From positions 4,312,382 to 4,376,381 of the forward strand of contig OZ245046.1 in assembly GCA_965224245.1 (NCBI GenBank): DNA of 64,000 bases. Direction: 5' to 3'. The notes under the pieces are model-generated. The model made no database searches, was not told the DNA's origin, and saw only the letters and a program-made list of their open reading frames with translations. The DNA comes from Candidatus Eiseniibacteriota bacterium (GTDB lineage Bacteria; Eisenbacteria; RBG-16-71-46; CAZAMP01). This document shows positions 47,037 to 62,330 of the stretch, piece after piece. The translations under genes and the position numbers were made by a program. How positions within the stretch are numbered: the first letter of the stretch is position 1; each line of letters begins with the position of its first letter.

Positions 47037-47052
47037 CGCATGTGGCGCGCCA
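47037..47052 (-). promoter_or_regulatory. Putative sigma54 -24/-12 promoter
   Basis: Minus-strand TGGCGCGCCACATGCG (GG-N10-GC) about 50 bp upstream of ATG 46988; a GAFTGA activator is encoded divergently. Confidence 0.6.
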
Positions 47053-47161
47053 GTCCGCCCGGGAGAGCCCCACGGATCGTGCAACCGGCCATCACGCGAA
47101 CGCTTGCGTTCGATCGTCCGGAGATCGGGGAGGACGCCCGCTGGCGGGAGGCGGCCCCGGG

Positions 47162-47199
47162 CGTCGAGAATCTCGACACCGGTGTGGAGGATCTCCACG
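47162..47199. promoter_or_regulatory. Tandem palindromic enhancer (UAS) sites for an NtrC-family activator
   Basis: CGTCGAGAATCTCGACA (47162-47178) and TGTGGAGGATCTCCACG (47183-47199), 21 bp centre to centre and 110-150 bp upstream of the sigma54 site. Confidence 0.65.
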
Positions 47200-47306
47200 A
47201 CCACGCGGTGGCGCGGCGTCGGGGCTCGGGATTCCCCTATACCCGCGTTTGCCGGAAAGGTCTTTCCTGAACGCGGGGTGTGCCTTCTCGAGTCGGCGAG
47301 GATGTC

Positions 47307-48989
47307 ATGCGATCTCCCATCGGCGTCCGGGCCTCGCGGCTGGGTGCCCGGCTGTTTCTGCCTCTGGTCGCGATCGTGGCCGTCACGTTCGCGATGCACG
47401 CAGTGGTGAACTACCGGACCTCGCGCAACGAGCTTCTCGGCTTCCTCCGATCGAACGCCGATCAGTCGAGCGATCTGATCCGGCGCGCCACCCACGACGG
47501 AATGCTCCTGAACCGGCTGGACGACGTGCAGGACACGATCACGCGCATCGTCGAGGGTCCGGGCATGGCGGCCATCCGCGTATACGACAAGGCCGGCGCC
47601 GTCGTCCTGTCGGCCCATCGGGACGAGATCGGCCAGCGGGCACCGATCACGTCGGACACGTGCGAGAGCTGTCACCAGCCCAATCACACGACCGAGGTCG
47701 GGCGCCTCGAGCGAAGCGGTCTGGCGCGGCTCTCGCGAGGCGAGGAGGTACTTCGCCACCTGTCGGTGATCCCGAACGAGCCCGCCTGTGCCGCCCCGGG
47801 CTGTCACGCGTCGCCCGACGAGGCGCCGATCCTCGGCGTCCTCGACATCGAGATGTCGATGCAGCCGGTAGAGTCCACTTTGCGCGCGGCGCAGGCCCGG
47901 ATCGCCCTGACCACGTTCGCGCTGATCGTGCTGATCGGATGGGCGTGCTGGGTGTTCATCGACCGGTTCGTGCATCGACCGGTCGCGGCGCTCACCGAGG
48001 GCACGCGACGGATCGCGAGCGGCGACCTCGAGACGCGGATCCGCGTGGAGGGCGGCCACGAGTTCGCCGACCTCGCGGGGTCCTTCAACGCGATGTCCGA
48101 GGATCTCCTGGCCGCCAAGCGCGAGCTCGAGACGTGGTCGCGCACGCTGGAGGAGAAGGTGCTGGACAAGTCGGCCGAGCTCCAGCGCGCGCACCGTCAG
48201 GTGCTCCACATGGAGAAGATGGCGTCGCTCGGCAAGCTGTCGGCCACGGTGGCTCACGAGCTCAACAACCCGATCACGGGGATGGTGAACTACACGCGTC
48301 TGATCGAGCGCGAGCTCGGACGGCAGCCGCTGGCGATGACCACGAAGGACGAGCTACTGCGCTACCTCGGTTTTCTCCACCGCGAGTGCCTCCGGTGCGG
48401 GAAGATCGTGTCGAACCTGTTGCTCTTCGCCAGGCGAACCGGCACCGAGATGGCCCCGGTGGATCTCCGCGTCGTGCTGGACCAGAGCCTGATGCTGATC
48501 GATCACCATCTGCACGTCAGCGGCGTCCAGCTGGAGAAGAAGCTGCCCGACCGCGACCTCACGGTCATCGCCGACGCGGGAGAGCTCCAGCAGGCGCTCG
48601 TGGCCTTGTTGATCAACGCGGTGGAGTCGATGGCGGGTCCGGACGCGGTCGACGAGCGGCTGACCGTCGAGGTCGTGGTCGAGGACGACGCGGTGCGAGT
48701 GGACATCCGCGACACCGGGGCCGGGATCGCCGCCGACGTGCTGCCGCACATCTTCGAGCCCTTCTACTCGACGAAGGACGAGGAGGGCGGCGTCGGGCTC
48801 GGGCTGGCGGTGGTCTACGGGATCGTCCAGCGTCACGGAGGCCGCATCGACGTCGAGTCGGAGACGGGGAGCGGCACCACGTTCCACCTGTGGATCCCGA
48901 GGGGCATCGAGTCGTTCGAACCGCGGCCGGGGCCCGACGACCGGCTGTCGGTGGTGGGTGGACCTCGCCGGGGAGGAGCGACGTCATGA
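47307..48989 (+). CDS. Sensor histidine kinase (HAMP, HisKA, HATPase) with periplasmic CxxCH and Cx4CH motifs
   Basis: Two TMs; CESCH and CAAPGCH; EKMASLG...VAHELNNP, DTGAGI, FEPFYSTK and GLGL motifs. Confidence 0.95.
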   Translation: MRSPIGVRASRLGARLFLPLVAIVAVTFAMHAVVNYRTSRNELLGFLRSNADQSSDLIRRATHDGMLLNRLDDVQDTITRIVEGPGMAAIRVYDKAGAVVLSAHRDEIGQRAPITSDTCESCHQPNHTTEVGRLERSGLARLSRGEEVLRHLSVIPNEPACAAPGCHASPDEAPILGVLDIEMSMQPVESTLRAAQARIALTTFALIVLIGWACWVFIDRFVHRPVAALTEGTRRIASGDLETRIRVEGGHEFADLAGSFNAMSEDLLAAKRELETWSRTLEEKVLDKSAELQRAHRQVLHMEKMASLGKLSATVAHELNNPITGMVNYTRLIERELGRQPLAMTTKDELLRYLGFLHRECLRCGKIVSNLLLFARRTGTEMAPVDLRVVLDQSLMLIDHHLHVSGVQLEKKLPDRDLTVIADAGELQQALVALLINAVESMAGPDAVDERLTVEVVVEDDAVRVDIRDTGAGIAADVLPHIFEPFYSTKDEEGGVGLGLAVVYGIVQRHGGRIDVESETGSGTTFHLWIPRGIESFEPRPGPDDRLSVVGGPRRGGATS

Positions 48990-50353
48990 GCGCGTCCGAG
49001 GGACGCATCCTGATCGTGGACGACGAGTTCTCGGTCCGGGATTCCCTGACGAACTGGTTCGGAAAAGACGGCTACGACGTGACCGCGGCGGAGAACGCGG
49101 CGGAGGCGCTCCGATCCCTGGAGGGCGGCTCGTACGACGTCGTGCTCCTCGACATCAAGATGCCGGGGATGGACGGCATGGCGCTCCTGGAGCGTGTCCG
49201 CGAGATCGACCCGAGCATGGCGGTGATCATGATGACCGCATTCGCATCGGTGGAGACCGCGGTACGCGCGCTGAAGGAAGGTGCGTTCGACTACGTCACC
49301 AAGCCCATCGATCCGGACGAGCTCTCCCATCTCGTGCGCCGCGCGATCGATCAGCGCCGCCTGCGCGACGAGAACCTCCGGCTCCGCGAGACCCTGGACG
49401 AGGTCACCGGCGTCCCGCCCATCATCGGCGACAGCCCGGCCATCCGCGAGGTGATGCGCCTCGTGGACCAGGTGGCCGGGACCGACGCCACGGTCCTCGT
49501 CCTCGGCGAGAGCGGCACCGGCAAGGAGCTCATCGCGCGGGCGATTCACGCCGCGAGCCCCCGCCGCTACTTCCCCCTGGTCCCGGTGAACTGCGGCGCG
49601 CTCCCGGCGGAGCTCCTGGAGAGCGAGCTCTTCGGCCACGAGAAAGGCGCGTTCACCGGGGCCCAGCAACGTCGCAAGGGACGCATCGAGATGGCCGGCG
49701 GGGGCACGCTGTTCCTGGACGAGGTGGGGGCCATTCCACCCCGGATGCAGGTCGATCTCCTTCGGGTGCTCGAGACCCACGAGTTCACCCGTCTCGGCAG
49801 CTCACAGCCGATCCACGCCGACTTCCGCGTGATCTGTGCGACCAACGAGGACCTGGAGAAGGCGGTCGCGGACGGTCGGTTCCGCGAGGACTTCTTCTAC
49901 CGCATCAACGTGTTCACGATCCTGGCGCCGCCGCTCAGGAGCCGTCGCTCGGACATCCGCCTCCTCGCCGAGCACTTCCTCGACGAGCTCGGCCGCAAGA
50001 TGAACAAGCGCTTCACCGGCTTCGCGCCAGACGCCATGGAGCTTCTGACCAGCTACCACTGGCCGGGCAACGTGCGCGAGCTGTACAACGCGATCGAGCG
50101 GGCGATGGTCGTGGGCCGGCCGCCGACGATCCGGTCGGACGACATGCCGGTGTGGCGCTCGCGCGCCGGGGTCGAGACACACAGCGCCCGCCTCGCCGAC
50201 ATCGAGCGGCGGCACATCGGCAAGGTGCTCGACGAGACCGGATGGAACATCACCCGGGCGGCCGAGCTGCTCGACATCGACCGGGCCACCGTCTACAGCA
50301 AGATCAAGAAGTATGATCTGGAGCCGCCTCAGGCGCGCACGAACGGCACATGA
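48986..50353 (+). CDS. Sigma54-dependent response regulator (NtrC/AtoC/ZraR family)
   Basis: REC domain (ILIVDDE, LLDIKMP), GESGTGKE, GAFTGA, WPGNVREL and a Fis-type HTH; ATGA overlap with the kinase gene. Confidence 0.96.
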   Translation: MSASEGRILIVDDEFSVRDSLTNWFGKDGYDVTAAENAAEALRSLEGGSYDVVLLDIKMPGMDGMALLERVREIDPSMAVIMMTAFASVETAVRALKEGAFDYVTKPIDPDELSHLVRRAIDQRRLRDENLRLRETLDEVTGVPPIIGDSPAIREVMRLVDQVAGTDATVLVLGESGTGKELIARAIHAASPRRYFPLVPVNCGALPAELLESELFGHEKGAFTGAQQRRKGRIEMAGGGTLFLDEVGAIPPRMQVDLLRVLETHEFTRLGSSQPIHADFRVICATNEDLEKAVADGRFREDFFYRINVFTILAPPLRSRRSDIRLLAEHFLDELGRKMNKRFTGFAPDAMELLTSYHWPGNVRELYNAIERAMVVGRPPTIRSDDMPVWRSRAGVETHSARLADIERRHIGKVLDETGWNITRAAELLDIDRATVYSKIKKYDLEPPQARTNGT

Positions 50354-50423
50354 TCGCGCATCCGCCGACCGCGGCGACCGCGCCGCGCCCGCGTCGCGCA
50401 CGCGTGAACGCCCCCGGGGAGAC

Positions 50424-50966
50424 GTGCAGCCCTCCGCTCCTCTGCGGCTGGTGCCGTTCTACCTCGGCTCCCACGCAGGGCTCGTCTCCCGGCTCTCGGA
50501 CGGCCTGACACACGCGTTCGGGCTTCGCGTGGAGCAGCACCCACCGGCGTTCGATCCCGAGATCGCCTACGACGCGTCGCGGGGGCAGTACAACTCGCGG
50601 GCCCTCCTCGCCCAGCTTCTCGCCGAGGCGCCGGACGAGGAGGGGCACATCCTCGGCGTCACGGGACTGGATCTCTTCATCCCCGTGCTCACGTTCGTGT
50701 TCGGGGAGGCGCAGCTCGGGGGCCGGGTTGCCGTCGTGTCGACCTATCGGCTCGACGACGTCGTCTACGGGCTGCCGGCGGCGCCGGAGCTACTTCTCGA
50801 TCGCCTGGTGAAAGAGGCCGTTCACGAGCTGGGACACACGTTCGGGCTCGTGCACTGTCACGATCCCACGTGCGTGATGACCAGCTCGACTCAGGTGGAC
50901 GGGATCGATCTCAAGACGAACCGGTTCTGCTCCGCCTGCCAGGACCGCGTGCTGGCGCGCCCGTGA
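50424..50966 (+). CDS. Archaemetzincin family Zn-metalloprotease (M54)
   Basis: RGQYNS, FVFGEAQLGG, KEAVHELGHTFGLVHC....CVM..S and FCSAC; start uncertain. Confidence 0.92.
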   Translation: MQPSAPLRLVPFYLGSHAGLVSRLSDGLTHAFGLRVEQHPPAFDPEIAYDASRGQYNSRALLAQLLAEAPDEEGHILGVTGLDLFIPVLTFVFGEAQLGGRVAVVSTYRLDDVVYGLPAAPELLLDRLVKEAVHELGHTFGLVHCHDPTCVMTSSTQVDGIDLKTNRFCSACQDRVLARP

Positions 50967-51108
50967 TCCGTCGATCTCGACCCGGCTGGCGCGTGCGACC
51001 ACGGGCATCGATCTCGAGAGGGTTCGGTCCTGCGCGGCCTGCCCGGGGCCGCGTGACCGTGCGACCGGCATCCCCGCTCGGCGGCGACTCCTCCGGACGG
51101 GCCCGGAA

Positions 51109-51984
51109 TCAGCCCTGGGCTCCCCGGTCGCCGCTGCCGCGTCGCTTGCGCCAGTCCCCCCGAGGCTCGCCCTGCCAGGCGAGCATCGCCTGGAGGCTGG
51201 TCGCGAAGCCGTCGATGCCCGGGAACAAGCTCAGGCGGTTCACGTTCAGGCGGTTCAGCCACGCGAGCAGGTACCACTGATTGTCGAGGGTGATGGGGAT
51301 CTCGATCTTGATCACACGCGTCCGCAGCACGGTGGGCGTGCCGAGCGACCGGAGGTTGCTCATGAACGACTTGCCCGGATTCATGGGGACCAGGAACACG
51401 CCTTGCTGCACGGCCAGCCGCTCGTTGACGTAGTACGGCACCAGCGGAACCACGAGGGTCGGCTCCTCCTCCAGGAGCACCGTGACCGCCGCGGGACTCT
51501 TGAGCTTCGGATCGATCCGGAGGGCCTCCCGCACGGCCGGCACCTTGCTGCGCCGGAGCCGATCGAACATCCACTGCTGGTCGATGGCCCAGACCGCGCA
51601 CGTGTCACCGGGGTTGGCCTGCTCGATCGCGAAGAAGAGCGCGATGTGAAACGAGTACGTCCAGTCGAGCAGTCGCGTGGGCGCGCCGTGATGCTGCATG
51701 AGCGCGTACCACTCCATGAAGTCGTCCGCACGCGGGACGCGTCCCGTGAACCGATGGAGGTGTCTGACGAAGTGGCGGAAGACGCGCCACTCGAGATACG
51801 CCTGATGTGAGAGCGGCCTGCCGAAGCGGTCGGTCGCGATCCGCTCCAGGCTCGGCTTGAGATCCCAGCTCGAACTCCCCTGGCCGCGAAACACCCACTG
51901 GATGCTCGGATCGGAGAAGCGCGCCTCGATCAGATCCTGAACCGACTGCCACGAGTCGCAGCTCTCGACGTGATACCAGGTCAT
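51109..51984 (-). CDS. FRG domain-containing protein
   Basis: WVFRGQ..SSW.L.PSL.R, LMQHHGAPTRLLDWT.S..IALFFA, RLAVQQGVF and LSLFPGIDG; ATG follows AGGAGG. Confidence 0.93.
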   Translation of the reverse strand: MTWYHVESCDSWQSVQDLIEARFSDPSIQWVFRGQGSSSWDLKPSLERIATDRFGRPLSHQAYLEWRVFRHFVRHLHRFTGRVPRADDFMEWYALMQHHGAPTRLLDWTYSFHIALFFAIEQANPGDTCAVWAIDQQWMFDRLRRSKVPAVREALRIDPKLKSPAAVTVLLEEEPTLVVPLVPYYVNERLAVQQGVFLVPMNPGKSFMSNLRSLGTPTVLRTRVIKIEIPITLDNQWYLLAWLNRLNVNRLSLFPGIDGFATSLQAMLAWQGEPRGDWRKRRGSGDRGAQG

Positions 51985-52151
51985 CCGCACACCTCCTGTG
52001 CCGGTCGAACCCGGACCATACACCGGGCAGGGCGACCGTTCGACGGTCGTGAGACGCCCCCGGCCGGGGGGGGGCACCCGGCCGGGGCCGATGCCGACCG
52101 GACCGCATGCCGTGCCCCACAGATCGCTTCGTTCAGCGGGGACGTCCGTCC

Positions 52152-52181
52152 GTGTGATTCCGGTACCCCCCACGCGCCCAA
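52152..52181 (+). promoter_or_regulatory. Putative ECF promoter GTGTGATTCCGG-N10-GCGCCCAA (copy 1)
   Basis: Both blocks and the spacer length are identical to the copy at 56215-56186 on the minus strand; lies 72 bp upstream of ATG 52254. Confidence 0.7.
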
Positions 52182-52253
52182 TCCGAGCGACCACCCGGGC
52201 GTGCCGGCGGAGGCCGCCCGCACTGACGGCATCCACGTTACAGGAGGCACGAC

Positions 52254-54719
52254 ATGCTCCGCTGGAACGCCGGCGCGCGCCGCGGGCGCGCGTTCACGGC
52301 GGCGCTCGCGTGCGCGCTCGTCTGGCTCGGGATCGCAGCCGCCGGCTCGTCCGCCGCCACGTACTTCGTCGACGCCGCACGGCCCGACGACGCGGGTAGC
52401 GGAACGAGCTGGGACGACGCCAAGAGGACGATCGACGCCGCCATCGCCGCCTCGGCCGCCGGAGACGCCATCCTCGTCAAGTACGGCGCCTACGCGATCG
52501 ACGACGACATCGTGCTCGTCTCGCATCGTCGCATCACGTCCGACGACGGCACGCACCTCGACTGGAGCTCGGCCGATCCCGATTCGAGTCTCTGCGTCGT
52601 CGACGCCGGCCAGGGCTCTCGTGTGCTCACCATCCACGGCGCCGCGATGACCGGACCGACTCACGTTCGAGGCCTCGAGCTGACCGGCGGCGACGGCACG
52701 TACAGCTCCGCCGACCCGTCCGCCGCCTATGGAGGCGGCGTCTACGTCGATGGGGGCGCCGACGTCACGCTCGAGCGCTGCTGGATCTCGGGCAACGTCG
52801 GCGGTACCAGCTACAACGGATTCGGCGGTGGGGTCGCGTGTCTGGGGACAGGGACCGACGTCTCGATCGAGGACTGCCGGATCTCGGGAAACACCGCGGC
52901 CACACCCCATCACGGGTACGGCGGCGGCATCTACTGCGACGGCGTCACCGCCACGATCGTCGGGAACGTGATCGAGGGCAACCTCGGATCCGTCCACCGG
53001 ACCGGGGTCGGCGGCGGCATCTACGCCGCGAACAGCGACGTCGTCGTCCAGTCGAACACGATCACGGACAACGTCGCGGCCGGACCCAGCTCGGGCGCGG
53101 GCGGCAACGGCGGCGGCGTCTATCTCTTCTCGGGCACCGCCGACGTCGGGCTGAACACGATCACCGGCAACAGCGCCGCCGAGGCGACGTCGAGAAGCGG
53201 TGCCGGCGGCGGGATCTACTGCAGCACCGCCGAGACGTACATCTGGGAGAACGTGGTCGGCGAGAACGTCGCCTCTCGGGGGGGACGGGGCAACGGTGGC
53301 GGGATCTACTGCCGGGGATCCGATTCGGTCGTACGCGACAACGAGGTGTACGACAACGTGGCCAGCACGTCCACCACAGGAGGCTACTACGCGTACGGCG
53401 CCGGGGGCGGCATCGTCGCCGGCGAGGGCAGCGGCATTCACGTGCTCCGCAACCGTGTGTACGGGAACGTCGCCTCTCGCTACGGAACGGGCAACGGAGG
53501 CGGGATCTGGATCAACAACATCGCGCAGATCGTGGAGCGGAATCTCATCTACGACAACGTCGCGTCGGAGGGGGCGCCCGGCGCCGGTGGCGGCGTCTTC
53601 ATCAACGGCACGACGCGCGCCGAGGTCGTCAACAACACCCTGTACCACAACGCGAGCCAGACCGGCGGCGACGGGGGAACCGGCAGCGGGATCTATCACA
53701 CCTCGGGCGGCACCCCGACGATCCGCAACAACGCCATCGCCGCTCACGACGTGCCCGGCAGCGACATGGTGGGGATCTACGAGACCTCCGCCCTGACCGT
53801 CGAGTACAACTGCTATCACGACAATCCGGGCGGGCACTACAACGAGCACGTGGTCTCGCTGAACGAGGGCATCGGCGAGCCCCGCTTCACCGACGCCGCG
53901 GTCCGCGACTTCGAGCTGCTGTACGACTCACCCCTGATCGAGGCCGGGCATCCCGACACGGAGGTGCCCGAGAACGGCGGCTGGCGCGTCGACGTGGGCG
54001 CGATCGAGTACACGGGGATCCGCCACGCCCGCGCCGTCCCGGGCCCCGGTGAGTACCTGTTCGGCGGACAGGTCCGCGCAAAGGTGACCGTCACCACGTT
54101 GGGCACGCTGTCCGAGATCGACATGACCGTACATCCCGGCGAACGGCATCCCGATGCGGTGAGCGTCGTCGATCGCTGGTTCGACATCCAGGCGGACGAA
54201 GGAGGTGGAACCACGTTCGAGCTCACGCTCAGCTATCTCGACGAGGAGCTGAACGGGCACCGGGAGAGCGACCTCACCCTCTGGCGGCGGGACGGATCGT
54301 CGTGGGAGGGACCCAAGGTCCCCACGGACGCCGATGCCGACGACGACTGGCTGACCGTCAGCGGGGAGACCGCGTTCAGCGACTGGGTGATCAGCGGCTT
54401 CGACGTGATGCTCGACGTCCCTGGCGAGACCGTGCTCGGGCCCGCCGTCGCCCTCGGAGCCCCGGCGCCGAACCCGTTCCGCGTCGTGAGCAGGCTGCGG
54501 TTCGACCTGGCCGACCGGGGCCGGACCACGCTGGCGGTCTATCGAACCGACGGGCGGCGGGTTCGCACGCTGATCGACGCGGTGCTCCCGGTCGGCGTGC
54601 ACGAGATCACCTGGGATGGTCGCGACGACGCGGGGCACGCGGTCGCGTCCGGTACCTATTTCTGCCGGCTGTCGACGGCACGGGGTCGAGTCGACCGTCG
54701 ACTGACCCTCGTGCGATGA
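52254..54719 (+). CDS. Secreted right-handed parallel beta-helix repeat protein with C-terminal FlgD-Ig/T9SS-like domain
   Basis: Signal peptide, ATYFVD...G.GTSW.DAK.TI..AI, many GGGI(Y/V)...N.I..N repeats, SPLIEAG...DVGAIEY and PNPF...WDGRDDAG..VASGTYF; AGGAGG RBS. Confidence 0.92.
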   Translation: MLRWNAGARRGRAFTAALACALVWLGIAAAGSSAATYFVDAARPDDAGSGTSWDDAKRTIDAAIAASAAGDAILVKYGAYAIDDDIVLVSHRRITSDDGTHLDWSSADPDSSLCVVDAGQGSRVLTIHGAAMTGPTHVRGLELTGGDGTYSSADPSAAYGGGVYVDGGADVTLERCWISGNVGGTSYNGFGGGVACLGTGTDVSIEDCRISGNTAATPHHGYGGGIYCDGVTATIVGNVIEGNLGSVHRTGVGGGIYAANSDVVVQSNTITDNVAAGPSSGAGGNGGGVYLFSGTADVGLNTITGNSAAEATSRSGAGGGIYCSTAETYIWENVVGENVASRGGRGNGGGIYCRGSDSVVRDNEVYDNVASTSTTGGYYAYGAGGGIVAGEGSGIHVLRNRVYGNVASRYGTGNGGGIWINNIAQIVERNLIYDNVASEGAPGAGGGVFINGTTRAEVVNNTLYHNASQTGGDGGTGSGIYHTSGGTPTIRNNAIAAHDVPGSDMVGIYETSALTVEYNCYHDNPGGHYNEHVVSLNEGIGEPRFTDAAVRDFELLYDSPLIEAGHPDTEVPENGGWRVDVGAIEYTGIRHARAVPGPGEYLFGGQVRAKVTVTTLGTLSEIDMTVHPGERHPDAVSVVDRWFDIQADEGGGTTFELTLSYLDEELNGHRESDLTLWRRDGSSWEGPKVPTDADADDDWLTVSGETAFSDWVISGFDVMLDVPGETVLGPAVALGAPAPNPFRVVSRLRFDLADRGRTTLAVYRTDGRRVRTLIDAVLPVGVHEITWDGRDDAGHAVASGTYFCRLSTARGRVDRRLTLVR

Positions 54720-54858
54720 GCTGACGAGGGCCGAGGGTGCCCCCGCGGAGAGCACGCGAGCGCACGATCTCCCTGGTCGCGCGCTCGCTTTCGTCTAGCG
54801 CCGTCGGGGCACGCCGTGCGTGACGAACGTGTCGGGCCGGGATGCGGCGGTGAGACGC

Positions 54859-55569
54859 TCACGGCATCCGGAACGTGCCGACCCGTGAACGCGCGATCTC
54901 GTCTCGGTTTCGGTAGGCGACCACACACCACGCTACCGCGGCGCCGGATGGCGGCGGATCGGGGACGCGCGTGGGCTGGAAGACCAGGAGCGTGTCGGGG
55001 CCACCGTCCACGATCGCGTGAACCGTGCCGTCGTCGTCGAGAAGGTGCAGCTCGTAGCGGTTCGCTCCGTCGACCGGACGCCAGGTCAGACGCACCCGTC
55101 CGCCCGCCATCCTCTCGGGCTCCTCGGCGATCGAGACCACGTCCGTGCCGGCCCGGTCACCGCGGAGGCGGAGCTCGGGCTCCCGGTCGTCACGAGCGAG
55201 CAACGTCATGGCCGACACCACGACGACGAACGCGGCGCCGGCACCGAACGCGGGCCTCCAGCGCGGGCCGAGGAACGCGTCGAAGAGGCGGTCCAGTCGG
55301 CTCGGGCGGGTCGACCGGGCGGCGGCCGCCGACCGCCGGGTCGCGCTCGCTCCGGTGAGGATCTCCCGTTCGAGCACGTCCGAGAGGCGCGCCGCGGCGT
55401 CGGTCGGGTCCGCACCCGCGGGGACATCGGCGGGATCGAGAAACGACCGATACGACGCCAGCCGCGCCCGGCAACGCGGGCAGTCATGCAGGTGGTCGAG
55501 CGCGCGGTCACCCGGAGCGAGCCCGGCGATCGTCTCCAGCTCGTCGATTCGGTAGCAGGCGTCGCTCAT
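54859..55569 (-). CDS. Putative zinc-finger (ZAS-type) transmembrane anti-sigma factor
   Basis: HLHDCPRC (Hx3Cx2C), a single TM and a C-terminal beta-sandwich; ATGA overlap with the sigma gene. Confidence 0.82.
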   Translation of the reverse strand: MSDACYRIDELETIAGLAPGDRALDHLHDCPRCRARLASYRSFLDPADVPAGADPTDAAARLSDVLEREILTGASATRRSAAAARSTRPSRLDRLFDAFLGPRWRPAFGAGAAFVVVVSAMTLLARDDREPELRLRGDRAGTDVVSIAEEPERMAGGRVRLTWRPVDGANRYELHLLDDDGTVHAIVDGGPDTLLVFQPTRVPDPPPSGAAVAWCVVAYRNRDEIARSRVGTFRMP

Positions 55570-56180
55570 GGTGATGATCCCCAGCGGTGCGCGTCGTCGT
55601 CTCGTGCTCTCGCTGCGAGTGCGCTGCGAAGCTTTCGCCGCGCGCTCTGCAGCACCCCACGGGCCCCCGACGCGGACCCGATCTTCAGGATCACGGTGAT
55701 GTCGTCCACGGCGACCCGCTCGAAGCAGCGGAGCCAGATCGCCTCCTGCTCGACGGGCTCGAGCGTCCGCCGGATCAGCGCGAGCGACGCCTCCTCGTCG
55801 AGACGCTCTTCGAGCTCACGATCGGGACCGATGCCGTCGTCCATCACGGCATCGGGATCGGCGTGCTCGTCGGTCATGAGCGCCGGTCGACGGAGCTGAC
55901 TCAAGCAACGATTCCGCGCGATCGCGAAGAGCCACGACGAGAAGCGCGCCCGCCCCTCGAACGTGCCGAGATCCCGGTATGCCGCCAAGAGCGTCTCCTG
56001 GGCCAGATCCAGCGCCCGCTCGTGGTCGCGGACGTGGCGAACGCACCACAGATACACGCGCCCCTGGTACCTGGCGAACAGGTCGGCGACGTCGCGTCGC
56101 ACGCCGTCGGCCTCCGGCTCGGTCTGGAACCGGAGCACGATCTCCTCGTCCGTTCGGTCGGGCGCATTCAATCGGTTCAT
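55566..56180 (-). CDS. ECF RNA polymerase sigma factor
   Basis: LFARYQGRVY, ALDLAQETLL.AY, FEGRARFSSWLF.IARNRC and region 4 ending ARRKLR. Confidence 0.93.
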   Translation of the reverse strand: MNRLNAPDRTDEEIVLRFQTEPEADGVRRDVADLFARYQGRVYLWCVRHVRDHERALDLAQETLLAAYRDLGTFEGRARFSSWLFAIARNRCLSQLRRPALMTDEHADPDAVMDDGIGPDRELEERLDEEASLALIRRTLEPVEQEAIWLRCFERVAVDDITVILKIGSASGARGVLQSARRKLRSALAARARDDDAHRWGSSP

Positions 56181-56185
56181 CGAGC

Positions 56186-56215
56186 TTGGGCGCACGACCA
56201 CCTCCGGAATCACAC
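56186..56215 (-). promoter_or_regulatory. Putative ECF promoter GTGTGATTCCGG-N10-GCGCCCAA (copy 2, probably autoregulatory and leaderless)
   Basis: Ends 5 nt before the sigma ATG at 56180, with no RBS; includes the stop codon of the CHAT gene. Confidence 0.7.
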
Positions 56216-59080
56216 CGATCGGGGCGCCGGCCGGGTCGAACGGTCGATCGATCCGGCGCGACGCCGCCACCACACCGCGGTCACCCCGAGACCGATCCCC
56301 AGCCCGATCAGGGCGCGGCCGGGCCAGGAGTGGCGACGCTCGAGGGCGATGGTGGCTCGACCGTCCCCCATGACCGTGAAGCCGGCCCAGTAAAAGGGAT
56401 GTGTCGTCTCGGGATCCTCTCTCATCCGACGCTGCGCCGTCCCGAGCGCGCCCGCCACCGAGCGTCCGCGCTCGAGGGCTCGATAGAAGACGTCCATGAA
56501 GCGCGCGGTCTGTGCGTCGTCGACGGGCCAGAGCGTCGAGACCACGCACCGCGTGCCGGCCACGAGGAATGCCGTACCGAGCCCCAGCATGCCCTCTCCG
56601 GAGACGATTCGCCCACCCGCGCTCTCGCATCCGGAGAGCACCGCCAGGCGCGCATCGAGATCCAGCGACACGATCGCCTCGGCCCGCAGCATCGAGTCCG
56701 CCTCGGCACTGCCGGCACCGCCGGGTCCGCTGACGTCGGCCGAGTCGGCCGATCCCGAGCCCCCGGCGCCGAGGGCGATTCCCGATCGCCAGGGCCGCTC
56801 GTCGTCCACGGTGATGTGTCCCGCGAGGTGGACGACGTCGTAGCCGACCAGGTCGGCGCCGCGGAGCGATCCCGCCTCGTCGTCCCTCCACAGATGCACG
56901 TGACGATAGCGTCCGGCGAGCTGCCGGACTTCGCCCCGCGCGCCGGCCAGATCCCCTCCGACCGACGGGCCGGCGGCCGCATAGGCGAGCGTGGACGGCG
57001 CCCCGGCTGCCGTCGAAGGCGCAACGTCGCGAAGAAGCGCGAGCACGGCACAAGACGGCACGCGCAGAACCGTCGCGTCGACGTCGCCGGCCAGCAGCGG
57101 GCGCAGCGGAATCCGATGGAGCGCGCCGTCGGGAACGTAGACGATACCGCTCGCGGCGGCGATGAGATCGGACACGCCCGCGAGCAGCGCGCTGGCCAGC
57201 GTGGCCGTGGTACGGGCCAGGAGCTCGAGGTCGGCGTCGCCCGATGCGCTCGACGGGGGCGCGGCGAGGAGACCCCGGCAGATCCCGACGTTGCGGGCGA
57301 GCCTCGTCTCGGTCATTCCCACGCGAACCACCCGACAGGAGTCCGTCGTCACCGCGAACACCAGTGTCTGATCGGATGCCGCGTGAATGTCGAGTAGTAG
57401 CTCTCCGGGCACGAGCACCCGGGTCTGGATCGCCGAGAGCGTCAACGCGTCCGTCGGCGCCCGTGCTCCCGCATCCTCGCCCAGCATGCGCTCGATCAGC
57501 GCGCGCGATCGAAAGCGCTGCAAGAACGCGAACGCGCGCTCTCGCCGCGCGGCCACCGGCAGCTGGGCGGGATGCTCGAGCAGCAGATCGGCGAGCGCGC
57601 CGTGAATCGCCGACCCGAGCTCCGCGCGCTGCTCCCGCCACATCGGATCGTCGGGCCGACTCCGCATGGCCTCCCAGGAGTCCGCGGCCTGTCGCAGATA
57701 CACGTATGCGCTGTCGGGGTACCCGAGCCCTCGATGGGCCGCCGCCGCGATGCGGCGAATGTGGAGGTCGACCTTCACCGGCAGCGGCTCGTCGTCGGCC
57801 TCGGCCGCGATCGCCCGCGCCAACGGAAGCACCTCGGCGTAGCGGCCGGCGTGGAGCAGGAGCTGTGCGAGCTCGCCCTCGATCACGACCCGCTTCTCGC
57901 GCCCGAGCCGGGGGACGATCTGGGGGAGGTGTTCCTCCATCAGGGTGACGGCGGCGGCCAGCGAGTCGGCGTCGTCGAGCGTGCGCGCGAGCCCCTTCAG
58001 GGCATCGGCCTCGAGGGCGGGCAGGTCGGTCTCCTGAAGCAGGTGAAGGGCGGCCCTGTAGTGCCCGACCGCCTCACCGGATCGGAGCCGGTCCCGCGCG
58101 ATCTCCCCGAGCGCGATGCGCGCGGAGGCCTCGTGATCGCGAAACCCGAACTCCCGGGCGATCGCGAGCTGCTCGTTCAACAGGCGCTCGGCGTCCTCGT
58201 ACCGGCCCAGCTCTCGAAACGCCAGCGCCGCGTTGGAGGCCGGCGCGATGGCGGCGCGCAGCCGGTTCTGCGCGCGCAGAACCGCGTACGCCTCGTCCCA
58301 GTGGACGGCGGCGCGATCGGGGCGGCCGGCGTTCGCCTCGAGGAGCCCCAGGTTGGTCAGGCAGTTCCCCTCGAGCGACGCCTGATCGTGCTCGCGCGCG
58401 TAGCGAAGCGCGTCCGTCCAGCTCCGTCGCGCCGCGTCGACGTCTCCCGCGCGGTGCTGGCAGATCCCGAGAAACAGCTTCGCCCCGTTCTCGTCGAGGG
58501 CGAGGTCGAGCCGCTGGAAGAGGGCGATCGCGCGCTCCAGCCGACGGGCCGCGCTCTCGAGCTGCCCGGCGCCGATCTCGCGACGACCGAGGTACAGATC
58601 CCCGCGCCCCACGAACTCGTCGAGGCCGGCGCGCTCGGCCAGCTCGATCACCCGCTCGTACATCGCGATCGCGCGTGGCGGCCGCCCCTGGGCATCGGCG
58701 GCCTGGGCCTGGCGGAAGAGGCTCCGGCACCACAGGAGCGTGTCGGCCACCTGCGCCGAGAGCGAGGCCGCCTCGGCCAGTGCCGACTCCGCCTCGGCCG
58801 GGCGGTTCATGAACCGGAGCACGCGTCCGATCCGGAACGCGGCGCGTGCCTCGTCACCGGCGGCTCCGGCCCGGTGACGCTCGTCTCGCAGGGCGCCGAG
58901 GACGACCAGCGCCGAGTCGAGACGGCCTTCGGCCCGCAGCGAGTCGGCGTGGGAGAACGCGGCATCCACGTCGGCCGCGCCCGCCGGTCCGGTCGTCTCG
59001 GCGGTGGCGAAGGGCGCACGCCCGTGCGCCCAGAGGATCGCCGTGAGGCACAGCAGTGCCGTCGTCAGAGAGGCCCGCAC
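56210..59080 (-). CDS. TPR-CHAT (caspase-like clan CD) protease with N-terminal signal peptide and C-terminal TM anchor
   Basis: TPR repeats; VPDGALHRIP, VVHLAGH (His), LAVLSGCES (Cys), GEGMLGL..AFL.AG, STLWPVDD and HPFYWAGF; C-terminal TM followed by WWRRR. Start is GTG 59080 or ATG 59209. Confidence 0.93.
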   Translation of the reverse strand: MRASLTTALLCLTAILWAHGRAPFATAETTGPAGAADVDAAFSHADSLRAEGRLDSALVVLGALRDERHRAGAAGDEARAAFRIGRVLRFMNRPAEAESALAEAASLSAQVADTLLWCRSLFRQAQAADAQGRPPRAIAMYERVIELAERAGLDEFVGRGDLYLGRREIGAGQLESAARRLERAIALFQRLDLALDENGAKLFLGICQHRAGDVDAARRSWTDALRYAREHDQASLEGNCLTNLGLLEANAGRPDRAAVHWDEAYAVLRAQNRLRAAIAPASNAALAFRELGRYEDAERLLNEQLAIAREFGFRDHEASARIALGEIARDRLRSGEAVGHYRAALHLLQETDLPALEADALKGLARTLDDADSLAAAVTLMEEHLPQIVPRLGREKRVVIEGELAQLLLHAGRYAEVLPLARAIAAEADDEPLPVKVDLHIRRIAAAAHRGLGYPDSAYVYLRQAADSWEAMRSRPDDPMWREQRAELGSAIHGALADLLLEHPAQLPVAARRERAFAFLQRFRSRALIERMLGEDAGARAPTDALTLSAIQTRVLVPGELLLDIHAASDQTLVFAVTTDSCRVVRVGMTETRLARNVGICRGLLAAPPSSASGDADLELLARTTATLASALLAGVSDLIAAASGIVYVPDGALHRIPLRPLLAGDVDATVLRVPSCAVLALLRDVAPSTAAGAPSTLAYAAAGPSVGGDLAGARGEVRQLAGRYRHVHLWRDDEAGSLRGADLVGYDVVHLAGHITVDDERPWRSGIALGAGGSGSADSADVSGPGGAGSAEADSMLRAEAIVSLDLDARLAVLSGCESAGGRIVSGEGMLGLGTAFLVAGTRCVVSTLWPVDDAQTARFMDVFYRALERGRSVAGALGTAQRRMREDPETTHPFYWAGFTVMGDGRATIALERRHSWPGRALIGLGIGLGVTAVWWRRRAGSIDRSTRPAPRSV

Positions 59081-59298
59081 GCTGCTCTCCCCCGACTCCA
59101 CGCGCTCACGCGCGTGCTCCAAGGCTCGATCGCCACCGGGCGAGCCATTCGTGTGCTCGCCGAACGAGCGCGTGCGGCGAATCGCGAGACCGCGAATCGC
59201 TGGTCGCATTGTACTCCCGCCGGGCGGTGTCCGGAATCAGCCGTCGAACGAAAAGGCAGCGTGATCGGGACCAGTGGGAGAGTCCGAGCGGAGGGATG

Positions 59299-59330
59299 GA
59301 GGCGACCCCCTCACGGGAGCGGGTCGCCTC
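59299..59330 (-). terminator. GC-rich hairpin downstream of the BNR-repeat gene
   Basis: GAGGCGACCC / GGGTCGCCTC 10-bp inverted repeat with additional inner pairing; no U-tract. Confidence 0.45.
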
Positions 59331-59347
59331 TCGACGTGATCAGCGCA

Positions 59348-61696
59348 CTAGCGCAGGATGAACAGCTTGCTGTGGAAACTGCCGAAGCGGGTGTCGAACC
59401 GGATGAAGTATGCCCCGGACGCGAGCAGGCTCCCGTCGTCGGAGCGCGCGTCGAACGCATACTCGTGCCGGCCCGCCTCGAACGCGCCCTCGGCGATCGT
59501 GCGCACGAGCTGACCCTTGACGCTGAACAGCCGCAGCGATCCCTCGGTCGGGCGATCCAGCTCGTAGTGGATCTTGGTGCTCGACTTGTACGGGTTCGGC
59601 GACGCACCCAGCGCCACGAACGGGAACGGGTTGGTCGGCGGCTCCAGCGGCTCGACGGCCACGACGATCCCGCCCTCGACGAGGGTCCGCGTGTGCAGCA
59701 CGAGCGCCGACCCGTCGACCTCGACGGACGCGGTGTGGTCGAGCTCCTGGGCGCCGGTGAACGTGCCCGCGATGCCGTTCAGCGACATCGTGCCCGACAC
59801 GGCGAACACGTAGTCGGAAACGCCGTCGGTCAGCGTCATGTCGCCCGCGATCTCCACCGTGCCCGGGCCGGTGGACGTCAGACCGATGAGCCCGCTCCAG
59901 GAGTCGGTGAACGCGATGCCGCCGAGGGCGGCGTCGGACTCCGCGGTGAAGTCGAAGTCGATGTCCGAGGTGCCGGTGCGGACGATCGCGAACGTCCCCG
60001 TCACCGTGCCCTCGGTGGCGGTCAGCGTGACGGCGCCGCTGATGTCCTCGCCCCCGATCTGGAAGACGCCCGGATCCTCGGCCGGCGTGGCCAGGAATCC
60101 GAGCGCGAGGCCACCCACCGCCAGCTGCGCGTTGGAGTCGACCGCCGGCGGCGGATCCATGCGGATCTCCGCCTCGTTGGGGATGAACCACGCCGTGCCC
60201 GACGCGGCGAATGGGGCCACGGACGCAATGTCGCCCGTCACCGAGAGCGTGTGCACGTCGTCGAAGCGCGAGAAGATGACGTCGGGGTTGCCCTCGCGCG
60301 CGTCGGACCACGCCGCGAACACCGACCGCTCGTCGCTGTCCATGTCGTTGTAGTCGCCGAAGTTCGGAATGGCGTCGGCGGGCACGCCGCACCAGGCCAC
60401 CGACATGTCGGACATGCGCCGGTTCGGGCCGAACGTGACGCCGCCGTCGACCGACTGGGTCACGTAGAAGTCGCAGAGGCTCGTTCCGCCCGCGTCGTTG
60501 CGGCGATCGTACCAGCCCACGGTGACGCGGCCGTCGGGGCCTACCGACAACGTCGGGAAGAACTGCTCGGTGTCGTCGGAGGGTGTGTTGTCGTTGAGCT
60601 GCTTGAACCCCTGGAAGCTCGCACCGTGGTTGTCGGAGTACTTGTAGTAGATGTTGAACTCGCCGCCCGCGCCGTTCACGTAAGACGCGTGCAGGCGCCC
60701 GCGGTTTTGACCGTCGCTGCGATCCACCTCGACCGACGGCCAGCGCAGGTTGCGGTCGCGGTTGAAGCACTGCGGATTCTCGCCCGAGAAGAACCCCATC
60801 GTCGCGATCTGGTTGATCCCGGTCGACCAGCTCGAGCCGCCGTTGGAGGAGTACCGCACGAACGCGGTGCCGCTGGCCGCCGGATCACCCTCGGCCCACG
60901 AGACGTACACCCCGCCGTCGATGCCGACCACGGGATACGGTCCACTCGAGCCGAACCCGTCGACCACGAGCCGCGGGGACGCCCACGCGAGCCCGTCGGT
61001 GTCCGACCACGTGAGCTCGGTGTTTCCGGTGTTGATGTTGTTGTACGCCATGTAGATCCGGTCGATGGTGGGATCGTAGTCGAGATACTCCTTGTCGAGG
61101 AAGGCGGCCCCGTACCGGATCGGTGGATTCCAGGTGAGCACGTCCGAGATGAACTCGCCGCGGTTGACGGCGAGGCCACTGGGATCTCCGAGGCTGTTCA
61201 GGCCGATCGACGCGTAGACCCACGTGCCGGCGTTGGTCTTCACGATCGTCGGGTCGCCGAGGACCCCGATGGTGGCCGTCTCGGGCATGCTGCCGCCATC
61301 GGTCCAGGTCTCGCCGCGGTCGCGGGAGTAGCCGACGCCGCTGTTGCTGCCCACCCCGGCGAACCCCCGCGAATCGTTCCAGCCGATGACGACGTCGTCA
61401 CCGTCGACCCAGATGCCGACCTCGGACTGAACCGAGGCGCCGGGCTCGCCGGTCCGGTCGTTGACCAGCTTGTTGTCCGGAGGTACCGCGCGCCCGGGAG
61501 GCACGGGCTGGGTCTGAGGCGGATCGTAGTCGCCAACCGGCGGCTCGATCGGCTCGGGAAACGCGGAGCGGAACGCCGTCCCGGTCGTGGAGTCGGCGCC
61601 CGGGGCGTCCGACGTGGCTCGCTCGCGTGCTATGAATCCTCCGGCGACGACCAGGATGCTCACCAGAGCGATGGCCGCGGTGCGATGCGCTGTCAT
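59348..61696 (-). CDS. Secreted BNR/Asp-box (sialidase-like propeller) protein with C-terminal FlgD-Ig/T9SS-like domain
   Basis: Asp-boxes YSRDRGETW, YSSNGGSSW, YSDNHGASF and QSVDGGVTF; FGDYN; C-terminal SPNPY...KGQLVRT...LASGAYF; GGAGGT RBS. Confidence 0.9.
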   Translation of the reverse strand: MTAHRTAAIALVSILVVAGGFIARERATSDAPGADSTTGTAFRSAFPEPIEPPVGDYDPPQTQPVPPGRAVPPDNKLVNDRTGEPGASVQSEVGIWVDGDDVVIGWNDSRGFAGVGSNSGVGYSRDRGETWTDGGSMPETATIGVLGDPTIVKTNAGTWVYASIGLNSLGDPSGLAVNRGEFISDVLTWNPPIRYGAAFLDKEYLDYDPTIDRIYMAYNNINTGNTELTWSDTDGLAWASPRLVVDGFGSSGPYPVVGIDGGVYVSWAEGDPAASGTAFVRYSSNGGSSWSTGINQIATMGFFSGENPQCFNRDRNLRWPSVEVDRSDGQNRGRLHASYVNGAGGEFNIYYKYSDNHGASFQGFKQLNDNTPSDDTEQFFPTLSVGPDGRVTVGWYDRRNDAGGTSLCDFYVTQSVDGGVTFGPNRRMSDMSVAWCGVPADAIPNFGDYNDMDSDERSVFAAWSDAREGNPDVIFSRFDDVHTLSVTGDIASVAPFAASGTAWFIPNEAEIRMDPPPAVDSNAQLAVGGLALGFLATPAEDPGVFQIGGEDISGAVTLTATEGTVTGTFAIVRTGTSDIDFDFTAESDAALGGIAFTDSWSGLIGLTSTGPGTVEIAGDMTLTDGVSDYVFAVSGTMSLNGIAGTFTGAQELDHTASVEVDGSALVLHTRTLVEGGIVVAVEPLEPPTNPFPFVALGASPNPYKSSTKIHYELDRPTEGSLRLFSVKGQLVRTIAEGAFEAGRHEYAFDARSDDGSLLASGAYFIRFDTRFGSFHSKLFILR

Positions 61697-61769
61697 GCGA
61701 CACCTCCGTGTGTGGGTGGAGGGAGATGGCCGGAAAGTGAAATTGTAGCGCGTCCCGGCGCTCCGGTGG

Positions 61770-62330
61770 TCACCGGCCGAGAAACTTTCGGTGCAGGATG
61801 TGCGGCTCCTCGTTGCTGAACGGCGGCGGCAGCGGCAGGGCCAGCCCGCGGGCGACCTCGACGAACCCGAAGGCCCAGTGCAGGTCGATCGACGGCCGGT
61901 TTCCCTCGCCGGTGAAGTAGTAGACGACGTCCGTGCGCTCACGGAGCCATTCGAGGCGGCGTGCGGTCAGCGCGCGGCCGATCCCCATGCGCCGGTGGCT
62001 GCGATCGACCTCCACGCCCGTCAGATACCAGCCGTCGGGCACGACGGAGGACCCGCCCGCGTCCTTCCAGGTTTTGTAGGCGCACTTGCCGTACCCCGCG
62101 ATCCGACCGCCGACCACCCCCACGCACGTGAACGCGCGTTCATCGCGGGCGGCGCGCTCCAGCGCGGCCCGGACCAGGGGGGCGAGCTCCGCGGGTGGCC
62201 GGTCCTCCCGCTCGACGTCCACGTGCGCGATCGCGAGCGCGTCGTCGGGAAGGGCGTCACGAACGACGATCGGCGCCGGGCGTCCGTGCCGCTCCGGCTC
62301 GTACGGCGATCGGGTGTTGCGCCTGGGCAT
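61770..62330 (-). CDS. GNAT family N-acetyltransferase
   Basis: V...HRRMGIGRAL acetyl-CoA motif and N.PSI.LH..FGF. Confidence 0.9.
   Translation of the reverse strand: MPRRNTRSPYEPERHGRPAPIVVRDALPDDALAIAHVDVEREDRPPAELAPLVRAALERAARDERAFTCVGVVGGRIAGYGKCAYKTWKDAGGSSVVPDGWYLTGVEVDRSHRRMGIGRALTARRLEWLRERTDVVYYFTGEGNRPSIDLHWAFGFVEVARGLALPLPPPFSNEEPHILHRKFLGR

Follow-up and report, generated by a model that had tools for sequence, protein, structure and literature searches.

A predicted pair of ECF-type promoters joining a sigma/anti-sigma operon to a secreted protein gene in a Candidatus Eiseniibacteriota bacterium

Contig OZ245046.1 of a Candidatus Eiseniibacteriota bacterium (assembly GCA_965224245.1) carries, within the 64,000-nucleotide stretch analysed here in full (positions 4,312,382 to 4,376,381 of the forward strand, referred to below as the window), two exact copies of a two-block element, GTGTGATTCCGG-N10-GCGCCCAA. 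One lies in front of the gene for a large, apparently secreted protein and the other directly ahead of a gene encoding a sigma factor of the extracytoplasmic function (ECF) type. From the sequence of this locus and of its relatives in other genomes, it is highly probable that the two copies form a pair of ECF-type promoters read by the adjacent sigma factor, one serving an autoregulated sigma/anti-sigma operon and the other a single output gene. The features concerned are listed below, with coordinates counted from the first base of the window.

52152 to 52181, plus strand: copy 1, the predicted promoter of the output gene, with its -35 block TGTGATTC at 52153-52160 and its -10 block GCGCCCAA at 52174-52181
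52254 to 54719, plus strand: output gene (P0123), 821 amino acids, with a signal peptide, a body of GGGxY/N-x-A repeats and a C-terminal FlgD_ig domain
54859 to 55569, minus strand: putative zinc-type single-pass anti-sigma factor (P0121), 236 amino acids, containing HLHDCPRC; its start overlaps the sigma stop codon
55566 to 56180, minus strand: ECF-type sigma factor (P0001), 204 amino acids, matching Pfam Sigma70_r2 (E 3.8e-16) and TIGR02937
56186 to 56215, minus strand: copy 2, the predicted promoter of the sigma/anti-sigma operon, with its -35 block TGTGATTC at 56214-56207 and its -10 block GCGCCCAA at 56193-56186
56210 to 59209, minus strand: TPR-CHAT caspase-like (clan CD) protease (P0122), 999 amino acids, matching Pfam CHAT (E 1.1e-50, residues 668-949) and TPR

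On both strands of the window the combined pattern would be expected 0.01 times, and the number of matches remained at two when up to three mismatches were allowed, a count that none of 100 shuffled sequences reached. The original prediction had described these copies as sharing all 12 + 8 bases of their flanking blocks around unrelated spacers, with copy 2 ending just short of the sigma gene, and each of these points was confirmed at the coordinates and on the strands given above: the 10-nt spacers have only one of ten positions in common, identity ends at both outer edges, and the end of copy 2 (56186) lies 5 nt ahead of the sigma ATG (56180). The unrelated spacers and flanks rule out a recently duplicated stretch. 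Taken alone, GCGCCCAA is found twice in the window, both times within the full copies, where 2.1 occurrences are expected; since this block shows no excess, the significance rests on the combination of the two blocks. Copy 1 is followed after 72 nt by the ATG of the output gene at 52254, which is preceded by AGGAGG. In copy 2, the TGA within the -35 block (56212-56210) is also the stop codon of the CHAT gene, an overlap absent from the original prediction, and the CGCC of the -10 block occupies 56192-56189.

The same element recurs in front of related sigma genes. Loci were collected with an alignment of 30 homologues of the sigma factor, which was used to scan species-representative genomes: at least 584 stretches matched, tblastn upheld at least 412 of them, and the 80 best of these (L001-L080, 46-63% sigma identity), whose record titles refer to metagenome-assembled genomes of Eisenbacteria, Krumholzibacteriota and Latescibacteria, were compared in detail. 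When the 110 nt before the sigma homologue were set out for all 80 loci without selection, most of them showed (c)GTGTGATTyy followed after about 14 nt by gCGTC(t/c)(c/a)A and, slightly further on, by ATG or GTG. A count of all 6-mers from -70 to +20 found GTGATT in 49 of the 80 upstream regions (1.1 expected) and TGTGAT in 43, with the -10 words GTCTCA, GTCTAA and GTCCAA also enriched; neither the listing nor this count depends on selection by a GTGA anchor. Candidates anchored on GTGA are present in 72 of the 80 loci, and the distance from the G to the CGTC-like word is 21 nt in 50 of them, 19 in ten, 20 in seven and 22 in five.

A simple consensus filter retained 59 of the loci, and a weight matrix was made from these, leaving out the window itself. 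The matrix yields the family consensus tGTGATTc-N13-gCGTCyaA, in which 14 bases separate GTGATTC from CG(T/C)C and the spacer carries nearly zero information. A site of at least 13 bits is found at the sigma start in 59 of the 80 loci, and the 1.18 Mb of sequence in these loci contains 112 sites of at least 14 bits, compared with four in reversed and 16 in shuffled sequence. Applied to both strands of the window, the matrix gives 21.2 bits for each of the two copies, which are its top matches. The next scores (12.2, 11.9 and 11.0) lie under 14.6, the mean of the best scores in 200 first-order shuffles of the window, and 21.2 bits was reached even once in only two of these shuffles. Relaxed family patterns with variable spacing picked out the same two sites across the window and no others. 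The presence of the same element directly before the sigma homologue in most of the 80 loci thus supports the earlier suggestion that copy 2 is the putative promoter of the sigma gene.

The predicted sigma factor matches the TIGR02937 sigma70-ECF model over residues 31-188 with 60.2 bits (cut-off 42.9). Together with its length of 204 amino acids and the Sigma70_r2 match, this fits an ECF (group 4) sigma factor made up of regions 2 and 4 only. No separate region-4 match was reported for it by Pfam, and its NCBIfam equivalog matches are all far under their cut-offs, the best having 81.5 bits against 206. Among 3158 candidates, 1357 homologues were found at E <= 1e-10, the best with 52-68% identity, from sources whose names include Candidatus Eisenbacteria and Krumholzibacteriota. 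Three cysteine residues of the window sigma factor (C46, C92 and C152) are invariant across all 30 aligned homologues.

Transcription from ECF promoters begins roughly 10-12 nt from the -10 block. Among the 59 sites of the matrix, 34 have an in-frame ATG, GTG or TTG codon 10-12 nt past the C of CGTC (at exactly 11 nt in 28 as the sole start, and in four more that have an earlier start too), and in nine the start codon lies only 5-8 nt past this C; the corresponding distance to the ATG in the window is 12 nt. Because the start codon falls at the usual ECF start distance from the -10 block, the mRNA of the sigma/anti-sigma operon is probably leaderless, its predicted start being at or beside the A of the ATG (56181-56180). 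The sole GGAGG nearby precedes the sigma ATG by 22 nt, a greater distance than is usual for a ribosome-binding site. Transcription from copy 1 is predicted to start at approximately 52186-52187, which would give the output mRNA a 5' leader of about 67 nt that includes the AGGAGG sequence.

The overlap of the CHAT stop codon with the -35 block is recurrent in the family, not obligatory: a TGA in this block closes an open frame of at least 200 codons in 19 of the 59 loci. In seven Krumholzibacteria-like loci (L004, L006, L008, L019, L021, L022 and L028) the ECF motif is preceded by a hairpin and a TGATATAAT-like word instead of a gene, which shows that conservation of the GTGATT block does not depend on its serving as the context of a stop codon. 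The hairpin in these loci is rich in G+C and has a run of T residues, and the TGATATAAT-like word resembles an extended -10 element, the two being situated 30-110 nt before the sigma start. This arrangement suggests tandem housekeeping and ECF promoters in these seven loci.

A second strong site (at least 19 bits), in addition to the sigma site (at least 13 bits), is present in 26 loci; sites away from the sigma start number 60 at the lower threshold and 32 at the higher. For 25 of these 32 the longest plausible downstream open reading frame (ORF) was scanned with Pfam. The other seven were dropped, namely L006, where the downstream ORF is the sigma gene, L027 and L040, which offer only a 98-amino-acid ORF more than 320 nt away, L034 and L057, where the contig ends, L076, where the ORF is doubtful, and an antisense site within the sigma gene of L077. 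Second sites usually precede genes for large proteins with a signal peptide, and 15 of the 25 target ORFs have FlgD_ig, Por_Secre_tail or CHU_C at the C-terminus; in L016 and L060 the contig ends before the C-terminus of the target. The idea that the secreted protein of the window is the output of the cassette, already part of the original prediction, is supported by these second copies and the genes behind them. Most of the sites are placed just past the last cassette gene on the same strand and some diverge from the first gene, while the layout of L007 is convergent, as in the window.

The bodies of the target proteins are of several types. FG-GAP propellers are encoded in L002, L013, L049, L078 and L080 and also in L038 and L064; in the first five loci the protein has a near-constant length (1365-1374 amino acids) and a FlgD_ig C-terminus, and looks like a conserved output class. 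Beta_helix/NosD domains occur in L007, together with a subtilase domain, and in L016, and other targets contain LVIVD (L033), RCC1 (L060) or a Rax2-type propeller (L077). Eight targets have no such C-terminal domain: signal-peptide proteins of 124-138 amino acids in L003, L004 and L021, proteins of 265-274 amino acids in L015 and L052, and those of L042, L079 and L041. The target in L041 (13022-13687, plus strand) is a 1-Cys peroxiredoxin, not a secreted repeat protein, and lies behind a second site of 26.6 bits.

Paired sites within a locus resemble each other more than sites from different loci, and the resemblance is confined to the blocks. In the 26 loci with two sites, the -10 blocks agree at 6.08 of 8 positions, a value that none of 5000 permutations of the partners reached (5.08 permuted); the variable -35 positions agree at 4.00 of 6 (3.55 permuted, equalled in 12 of 5000), and the spacers give no signal (3.27 versus 3.33). 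For example, the two sites share GCATC in L015 and in L052, CGTTT in L079, and GTGTC in L080, L040 and L057. Co-variation of the -10 blocks but not of the spacers is as expected if each sigma factor recognises its own pair of promoters and the two change in concert. The two copies in the window, with identical blocks and unrelated spacers, show the same pattern.

The output gene converges on the sigma and anti-sigma genes, and copy 1 is situated in a 269-nt region that it shares with a divergent gene for an FRG-domain protein. The C-terminal FlgD_ig domain of the output protein is recognised by Pfam with E 3e-8. Within the body of the protein, Pfam detects no Beta_helix even at E <= 5 and matches Chlam_PMP weakly (E 0.11). 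The target protein of L016, which carries Pfam Beta_helix (E 1.9e-27), aligns with residues 9-406 of the output protein by BLASTP (E 8e-16, 28% identity), and the body would thus be a right-handed beta-helix by homology.

The 236-amino-acid ORF that follows the sigma gene is a putative cognate anti-sigma factor. It has no Pfam or NCBIfam match, and is predicted to cross the membrane once (approximately residues 107-125), with a C-terminal domain of about 110 residues outside the cytoplasm. A homologue is found directly after the sigma gene in 71 of the 80 loci; among 77 ORFs in this position, the motif H-x3-C-x2-C is found close to the N-terminus in 62 and a single transmembrane-like segment in 70. 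Residues C5, H26, C30 and C33 are invariant in 44 aligned sequences and constitute a putative CHCC zinc site in the cytoplasmic domain. Two further residues are invariant in this alignment, W163 and R136, the latter within the consensus VLRG just past the membrane segment; R136 is a candidate, if speculative, site of cleavage by the CHAT protease.

Homologues of the CHAT protein are encoded in 61 of the 80 loci. Among 45 full-length ORFs, 35 are located directly upstream of the sigma gene, nine directly downstream of the anti-sigma gene and one on the other strand. The protein in the window has a hydrophobic segment towards its N-terminus (approximately residues 48-62), and at the other end a membrane anchor and then RRR, and for this reason its TPR-CHAT part is probably outside the cytoplasm; most of the 45 full-length homologues likewise end in a hydrophobic stretch and basic residues. 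As H794, H798 and C861 are the same in all 34 sequences compared, the putative His/Cys dyad of the protease is intact. The annotated ATG is overlapped by TACAAT at 59208-59213 (minus strand), and the true start would lie further downstream if this word were a housekeeping -10 element. The tblastn matches of the protein to its homologues start only at about residues 45-90. A reading of the cassette as a defence system was considered and set aside, because PADLOC gave only weak CHAT/TPR matches (none for the sigma or anti-sigma factor) and no repeat array was found in 40000-64000.

The circuit that we propose would operate as follows. In the resting state the zinc-binding membrane anti-sigma factor would hold the sigma factor at the membrane. 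On receipt of a signal, the outward-facing TPR-CHAT protease would cut the outer part of the anti-sigma factor, possibly at the invariant arginine just outside the membrane, a step suggested by synteny, by topology and by the precedent of DdvA (see below). Intramembrane and cytoplasmic proteolysis would follow and release the sigma factor, whose sigma4 domain would read tGTGATTc as the -35 element and whose sigma2 domain would read gCGCCcaA, the local form of gCGTCyaA, as the -10 element. At copy 2 the freed sigma factor would amplify its own leaderless sigma/anti-sigma operon by positive autoregulation, and at copy 1 it would switch on the secreted beta-helix protein with its sorting-type C-terminal domain; this output step is proposed on the comparative evidence from the related loci.

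Several points weigh against this interpretation or limit it. We infer from sequence that RNA polymerase carrying this sigma factor starts transcription at the motif, as we do the exact start points, the topology of the proteins and the step from the protease to the anti-sigma factor. In 21 of the 80 loci the best site near the sigma gene scores below 13 bits: the spacer is 1 nt longer in L005 and L013, GTGAC or GACTC variants occur in L044, L045, L053 and L065, and nothing recognisable is found in L003, L017, L050 and L064. The information of the matrix is inflated at its anchored positions, the training sites having been picked by a GTGA anchor and a consensus score, and the permutation test treats related loci as independent, which may flatter the co-variation. 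No in-frame start codon lies within 5-15 nt in 16 of the 59 sites, so that leaderless initiation is common but not universal. The tblastn matches of the output protein to the 80 loci are confined to its C-terminal domain, the body having no orthologue there, and all site counts cover the window and these 80 loci, the source genome not being among the matches. The -10 block of the window is itself unusual. T is present in CGTC at 56 of the 59 training sites, and both window copies have C (CGCC); the CGCC training sites of L018 and L026 are mis-picks inside the CHAT ORF, so that CGCC occurs at no true site sampled and could represent a weak or altered promoter. Changes in the sigma factor were considered as the cause. 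From the residues common to 80% or more of the 29 other homologues in the alignment, the window sigma factor deviates at I14, F18, D30, V31, A32, F35, T63 and A157, which are outside the region expected to read the -10 element, and no conclusion was drawn.

The departure of CGCC from the family norm, with no obvious change in the -10-reading region of the window sigma factor, would also be compatible with an ECF-type promoter read by a paralogous sigma factor encoded elsewhere in the genome, either instead of or in addition to the adjacent one, with cross-regulation of cassettes. Two loci among the best 80 come from the same assembly in 13 of 67 cases, and several paralogous cassettes per genome are therefore common. 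We consider this explanation unlikely in view of the co-variation of -10 blocks within loci and of the position of one copy directly on the start of the adjacent sigma gene, as is seen in the family; moreover, no paralogue of the sigma factor, CHAT protein or anti-sigma factor is encoded in the 64-kb window. A regulator other than a sigma factor, such as one of the CRP/FNR type, could also bind the blocks as operators, the promoters lying elsewhere. TGTGA, the half-site word of CRP-family operators, is contained in the element, and a consensus scan of 51000-60000 found no sigma-70-like promoter to account for transcription instead. A symmetric second half-site is missing, however, and the 13 intervening positions carry nearly zero information; the element always faces the gene that follows, its CGTC-type second block stands at a promoter-like distance from the first, and in 34 of 59 sites a start codon comes 10-12 nt later; the element also accompanies one sigma family across three candidate phyla. 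An operator of this kind is accordingly very unlikely.

It is highly improbable that the blocks belong to a structured RNA element, a leader or riboregulator common to the two transcripts. Copy 1 does lie in an intergenic region of 269 nt with a G+C-rich hairpin, but copy 2 shares bases with the end of a coding gene and is just 5 nt from the ATG, there is no complementarity between the blocks, the spacer lacks co-variation and no Rfam family was matched. We give almost no credence to a functionless chance repeat or a relic of local duplication: two more TGATTCCGG words in the window do look like chance and GCGCCCAA shows no excess by itself, but the combined pattern is expected only 0.01 times, the spacers and flanks are unrelated, and a matrix derived from other genomes selects exactly these two sites. 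Nor are the family sites an artefact of coding sequence, as they persist where the upstream sequence is a hairpin and not a gene. An ECF promoter pair read by the adjacent sigma factor remains the interpretation that we favour.

An autoregulated ECF sigma factor with a bipartite promoter is a textbook principle, and the present system resembles others of this kind in having a two-block motif before its own sigma gene, an adjacent zinc-type anti-sigma factor, a -35 element with GTGAT and a -10 element of the CGT type. The closest wording of the -35 element, judged by described promoters and not by group models, is that of ECF11 (the RpoE/ChrR type; GTGATC / CGTA) and ECF22 (TGTGATTTT / GCGAAT(C/A)AT), as given in supplementary file 1 of PMC7826278. 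In contrast to both, the -10 element here is CGTC (CGCC in the window) and not CGTA or GCGAAT, the anti-sigma factor is a single-pass membrane protein, neither of the soluble ChrR type nor a membrane protein with four helices, and the cassette includes a CHAT protease. A comparison of the sigma factor with PDB sequences returned 18 matches at E <= 1e-3, the best an AlgU-type sigma factor (E 2e-13); none of the 18 chains is named as DdvS or RpoE/ChrR, a comparison of names only, with the presence of a DdvS entry in the searched copy unconfirmed. In the same database, where the presence of a DdvA entry is likewise unconfirmed, the CHAT protein had 12 matches at E <= 1e-3, all of them TPR-repeat proteins and none with a CHAT domain.

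The DdvS/DdvA system of Myxococcus xanthus offers the nearest precedent for the cassette as a whole. In published accounts (PMC11506125, PMC6061681), DdvS is described as an ECF sigma factor held by a membrane anti-sigma factor, DdvA, with a cytoplasmic CHCC zinc site and an outer TPR-CHAT module that is proposed to start regulated proteolysis; DdvS is autoregulated and drives neighbouring genes, its regulon being a defence island with a cyclic oligonucleotide-based antiphage signalling system (CBASS) and clustered regularly interspaced short palindromic repeats (CRISPR). The zinc domain, membrane helix and TPR-CHAT module of DdvA form one polypeptide, the His-Cys site of which is described there as incomplete, and fused forms of this type are reported only in Myxococcota and one Comamonas. 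The cassette described here shares the ECF sigma factor with predicted autoregulation, the membrane anti-sigma factor with a putative CHCC zinc site and, as its probable topology implies, the TPR-CHAT module on the outer side. Unlike DdvA, it is divided between two separate genes (54859-55569 and 56210-59209), with the same split in the related loci; its CHAT protein has its own C-terminal anchor and invariant H794, H798 and C861, and the outputs are secreted repeat proteins.

CHAT/TPR proteins are also neighbours of ECF sigma factors in other settings. One such case is a type III-E CRISPR effector, craspase, where a TPR-CHAT protease is genetically linked to a small partner, Csx30, and to the ECF sigma factor RpoE. 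Excerpts of PMC10028731 and PMC9825189 describe the TPR-CHAT protein of this system, Csx29, together with an ECF-type sigma factor. The linkage of such a protease to an ECF sigma factor and a small partner protein is common to craspase and to our cassette; craspase is cytoplasmic and guided by Cas7-11, whereas here the protease and anti-sigma factor have membrane segments and 40000-64000 is free of repeat arrays. For ECF54 of Actinobacteria, CHAT and TPR proteins are described as conserved in the genetic context, with carboxypeptidase-like and subtilase neighbours and no anti-sigma factor (PMC8999054, PMC7826278). The CHAT/TPR neighbour is the point of similarity; the zinc-type anti-sigma factor after the sigma gene in 71 of 80 loci and the phyla concerned are different. 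In the limited literature collection searched, no paper joining "Eisenbacteria" and "ECF" was found, and among the matches listed for "TPR-CHAT" and "anti-sigma" all concern DdvA or CRISPR-associated proteases.

The remaining elements of the window are peripheral to the promoter pair. The word TGATTCCGG occurs four times in the window, against 0.54 expected, two of these occurrences being in the full copies; the other two are listed here with an inverted repeat.

51103 to 51111, minus strand: fourth TGATTCCGG, the TGA of which is the stop codon of the FRG-domain gene (matrix score -31.2 bits)
54756 to 54788, no strand assigned: inverted repeat with 12-nt arms and a 9-nt loop, between the convergent output and anti-sigma genes
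59231 to 59239, minus strand: partial copy limited to TGATTCCGG, 21 nt upstream of the CHAT ATG (matrix score -36.4 bits)

The original prediction had reported the partial copy in front of the CHAT gene. The word is indeed present, but its role as a site is unsupported: 59239-59231 was rejected as a third promoter in view of the score of -36.4 bits and of the lack of any matrix match of at least 7 bits near the CHAT start in all 35 loci with CHAT upstream of sigma. A count of 6-mers near the CHAT start in the same 35 loci gave no convincing enrichment. Since no matrix match is found near these starts, the protease appears to be outside the regulon of the sigma factor in the upstream-CHAT layout. 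The occurrence at 51111-51103 is taken as chance, given its position on a stop codon, its score and the lack of a downstream gene in that orientation.

The inverted repeat at 54756-54788 is possibly a two-way terminator, which a consensus terminator scan missed because it has no T run; in 51000-60000 the consensus scans found no sigma-70-like promoter or intrinsic terminator, and a search for known RNA families gave only a chance-level Rfam match (E 0.97) elsewhere. A further G+C-rich inverted repeat (52055-52090) has arms of 14 nt, a loop of 8 nt and nine consecutive G residues, and is located between the divergent genes, some 60 nt upstream of copy 1. The FRG-domain protein encoded divergently from the output gene (51109-51984, minus strand; 291 amino acids) matches PADLOC PDC-S15, a candidate defence family (E 1e-43), and Pfam FRG (E 3.7e-24), and is placed outside the cassette because none of the 80 related loci has a homologue. 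Upstream of the CHAT gene, 59348-61942 (minus strand) encodes an 864-amino-acid protein with BNR, FlgD_ig and Por_Secre_tail domains, followed by a hairpin with 14-nt arms (59299-59330); this protein is not predicted to be a target, as there is no matrix site in front of its gene. No link to the promoter pair was seen for a 1103-amino-acid response-regulator/sigma-54 activator (47042-50353, plus strand) or for an M54 (archaemetzincin-like) peptidase (50313-50966, plus strand).

We tentatively suggest that the cassette represents a widespread and undescribed ECF module of Eisenbacteria, Krumholzibacteriota and Latescibacteria, with at least 412 loci and often two or more per genome. In such a module a free-standing, membrane-anchored and catalytically intact TPR-CHAT protein would act as site-1 protease on a separate CHCC-zinc anti-sigma factor, with R136 as the candidate cut, and a co-evolving promoter dialect would direct the synthesis of a sigma mRNA without a leader and, in essence, of a single giant surface protein with an FG-GAP propeller, beta-helix, LVIVD or RCC1 body and a sorting-type C-terminus. 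If this is correct, it would be a one-sensor, one-surface-protein system with insulation between paralogues at the level of the promoter, and the CGCC -10 element of the window would be one dialect among these. The split between TPR-CHAT protease and zinc anti-sigma factor would extend the only characterised TPR-CHAT anti-sigma factor, DdvA, beyond the Myxococcota and outside the context of phage defence. The advance lies in a new family and regulon and not in a new mechanism, although the arrangement of the input protease is possibly new. Since the sites of a locus co-vary, the loci offer a natural data set on the divergence of ECF sigma/promoter specificity among paralogues, and the paired sites are a source of possibly orthogonal sigma/promoter pairs. 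For phyla that lack a cultured model or mapped promoters, the module would provide a testable circuit comprising a promoter consensus, its sigma and anti-sigma factors, a protease as the probable input and one output gene.

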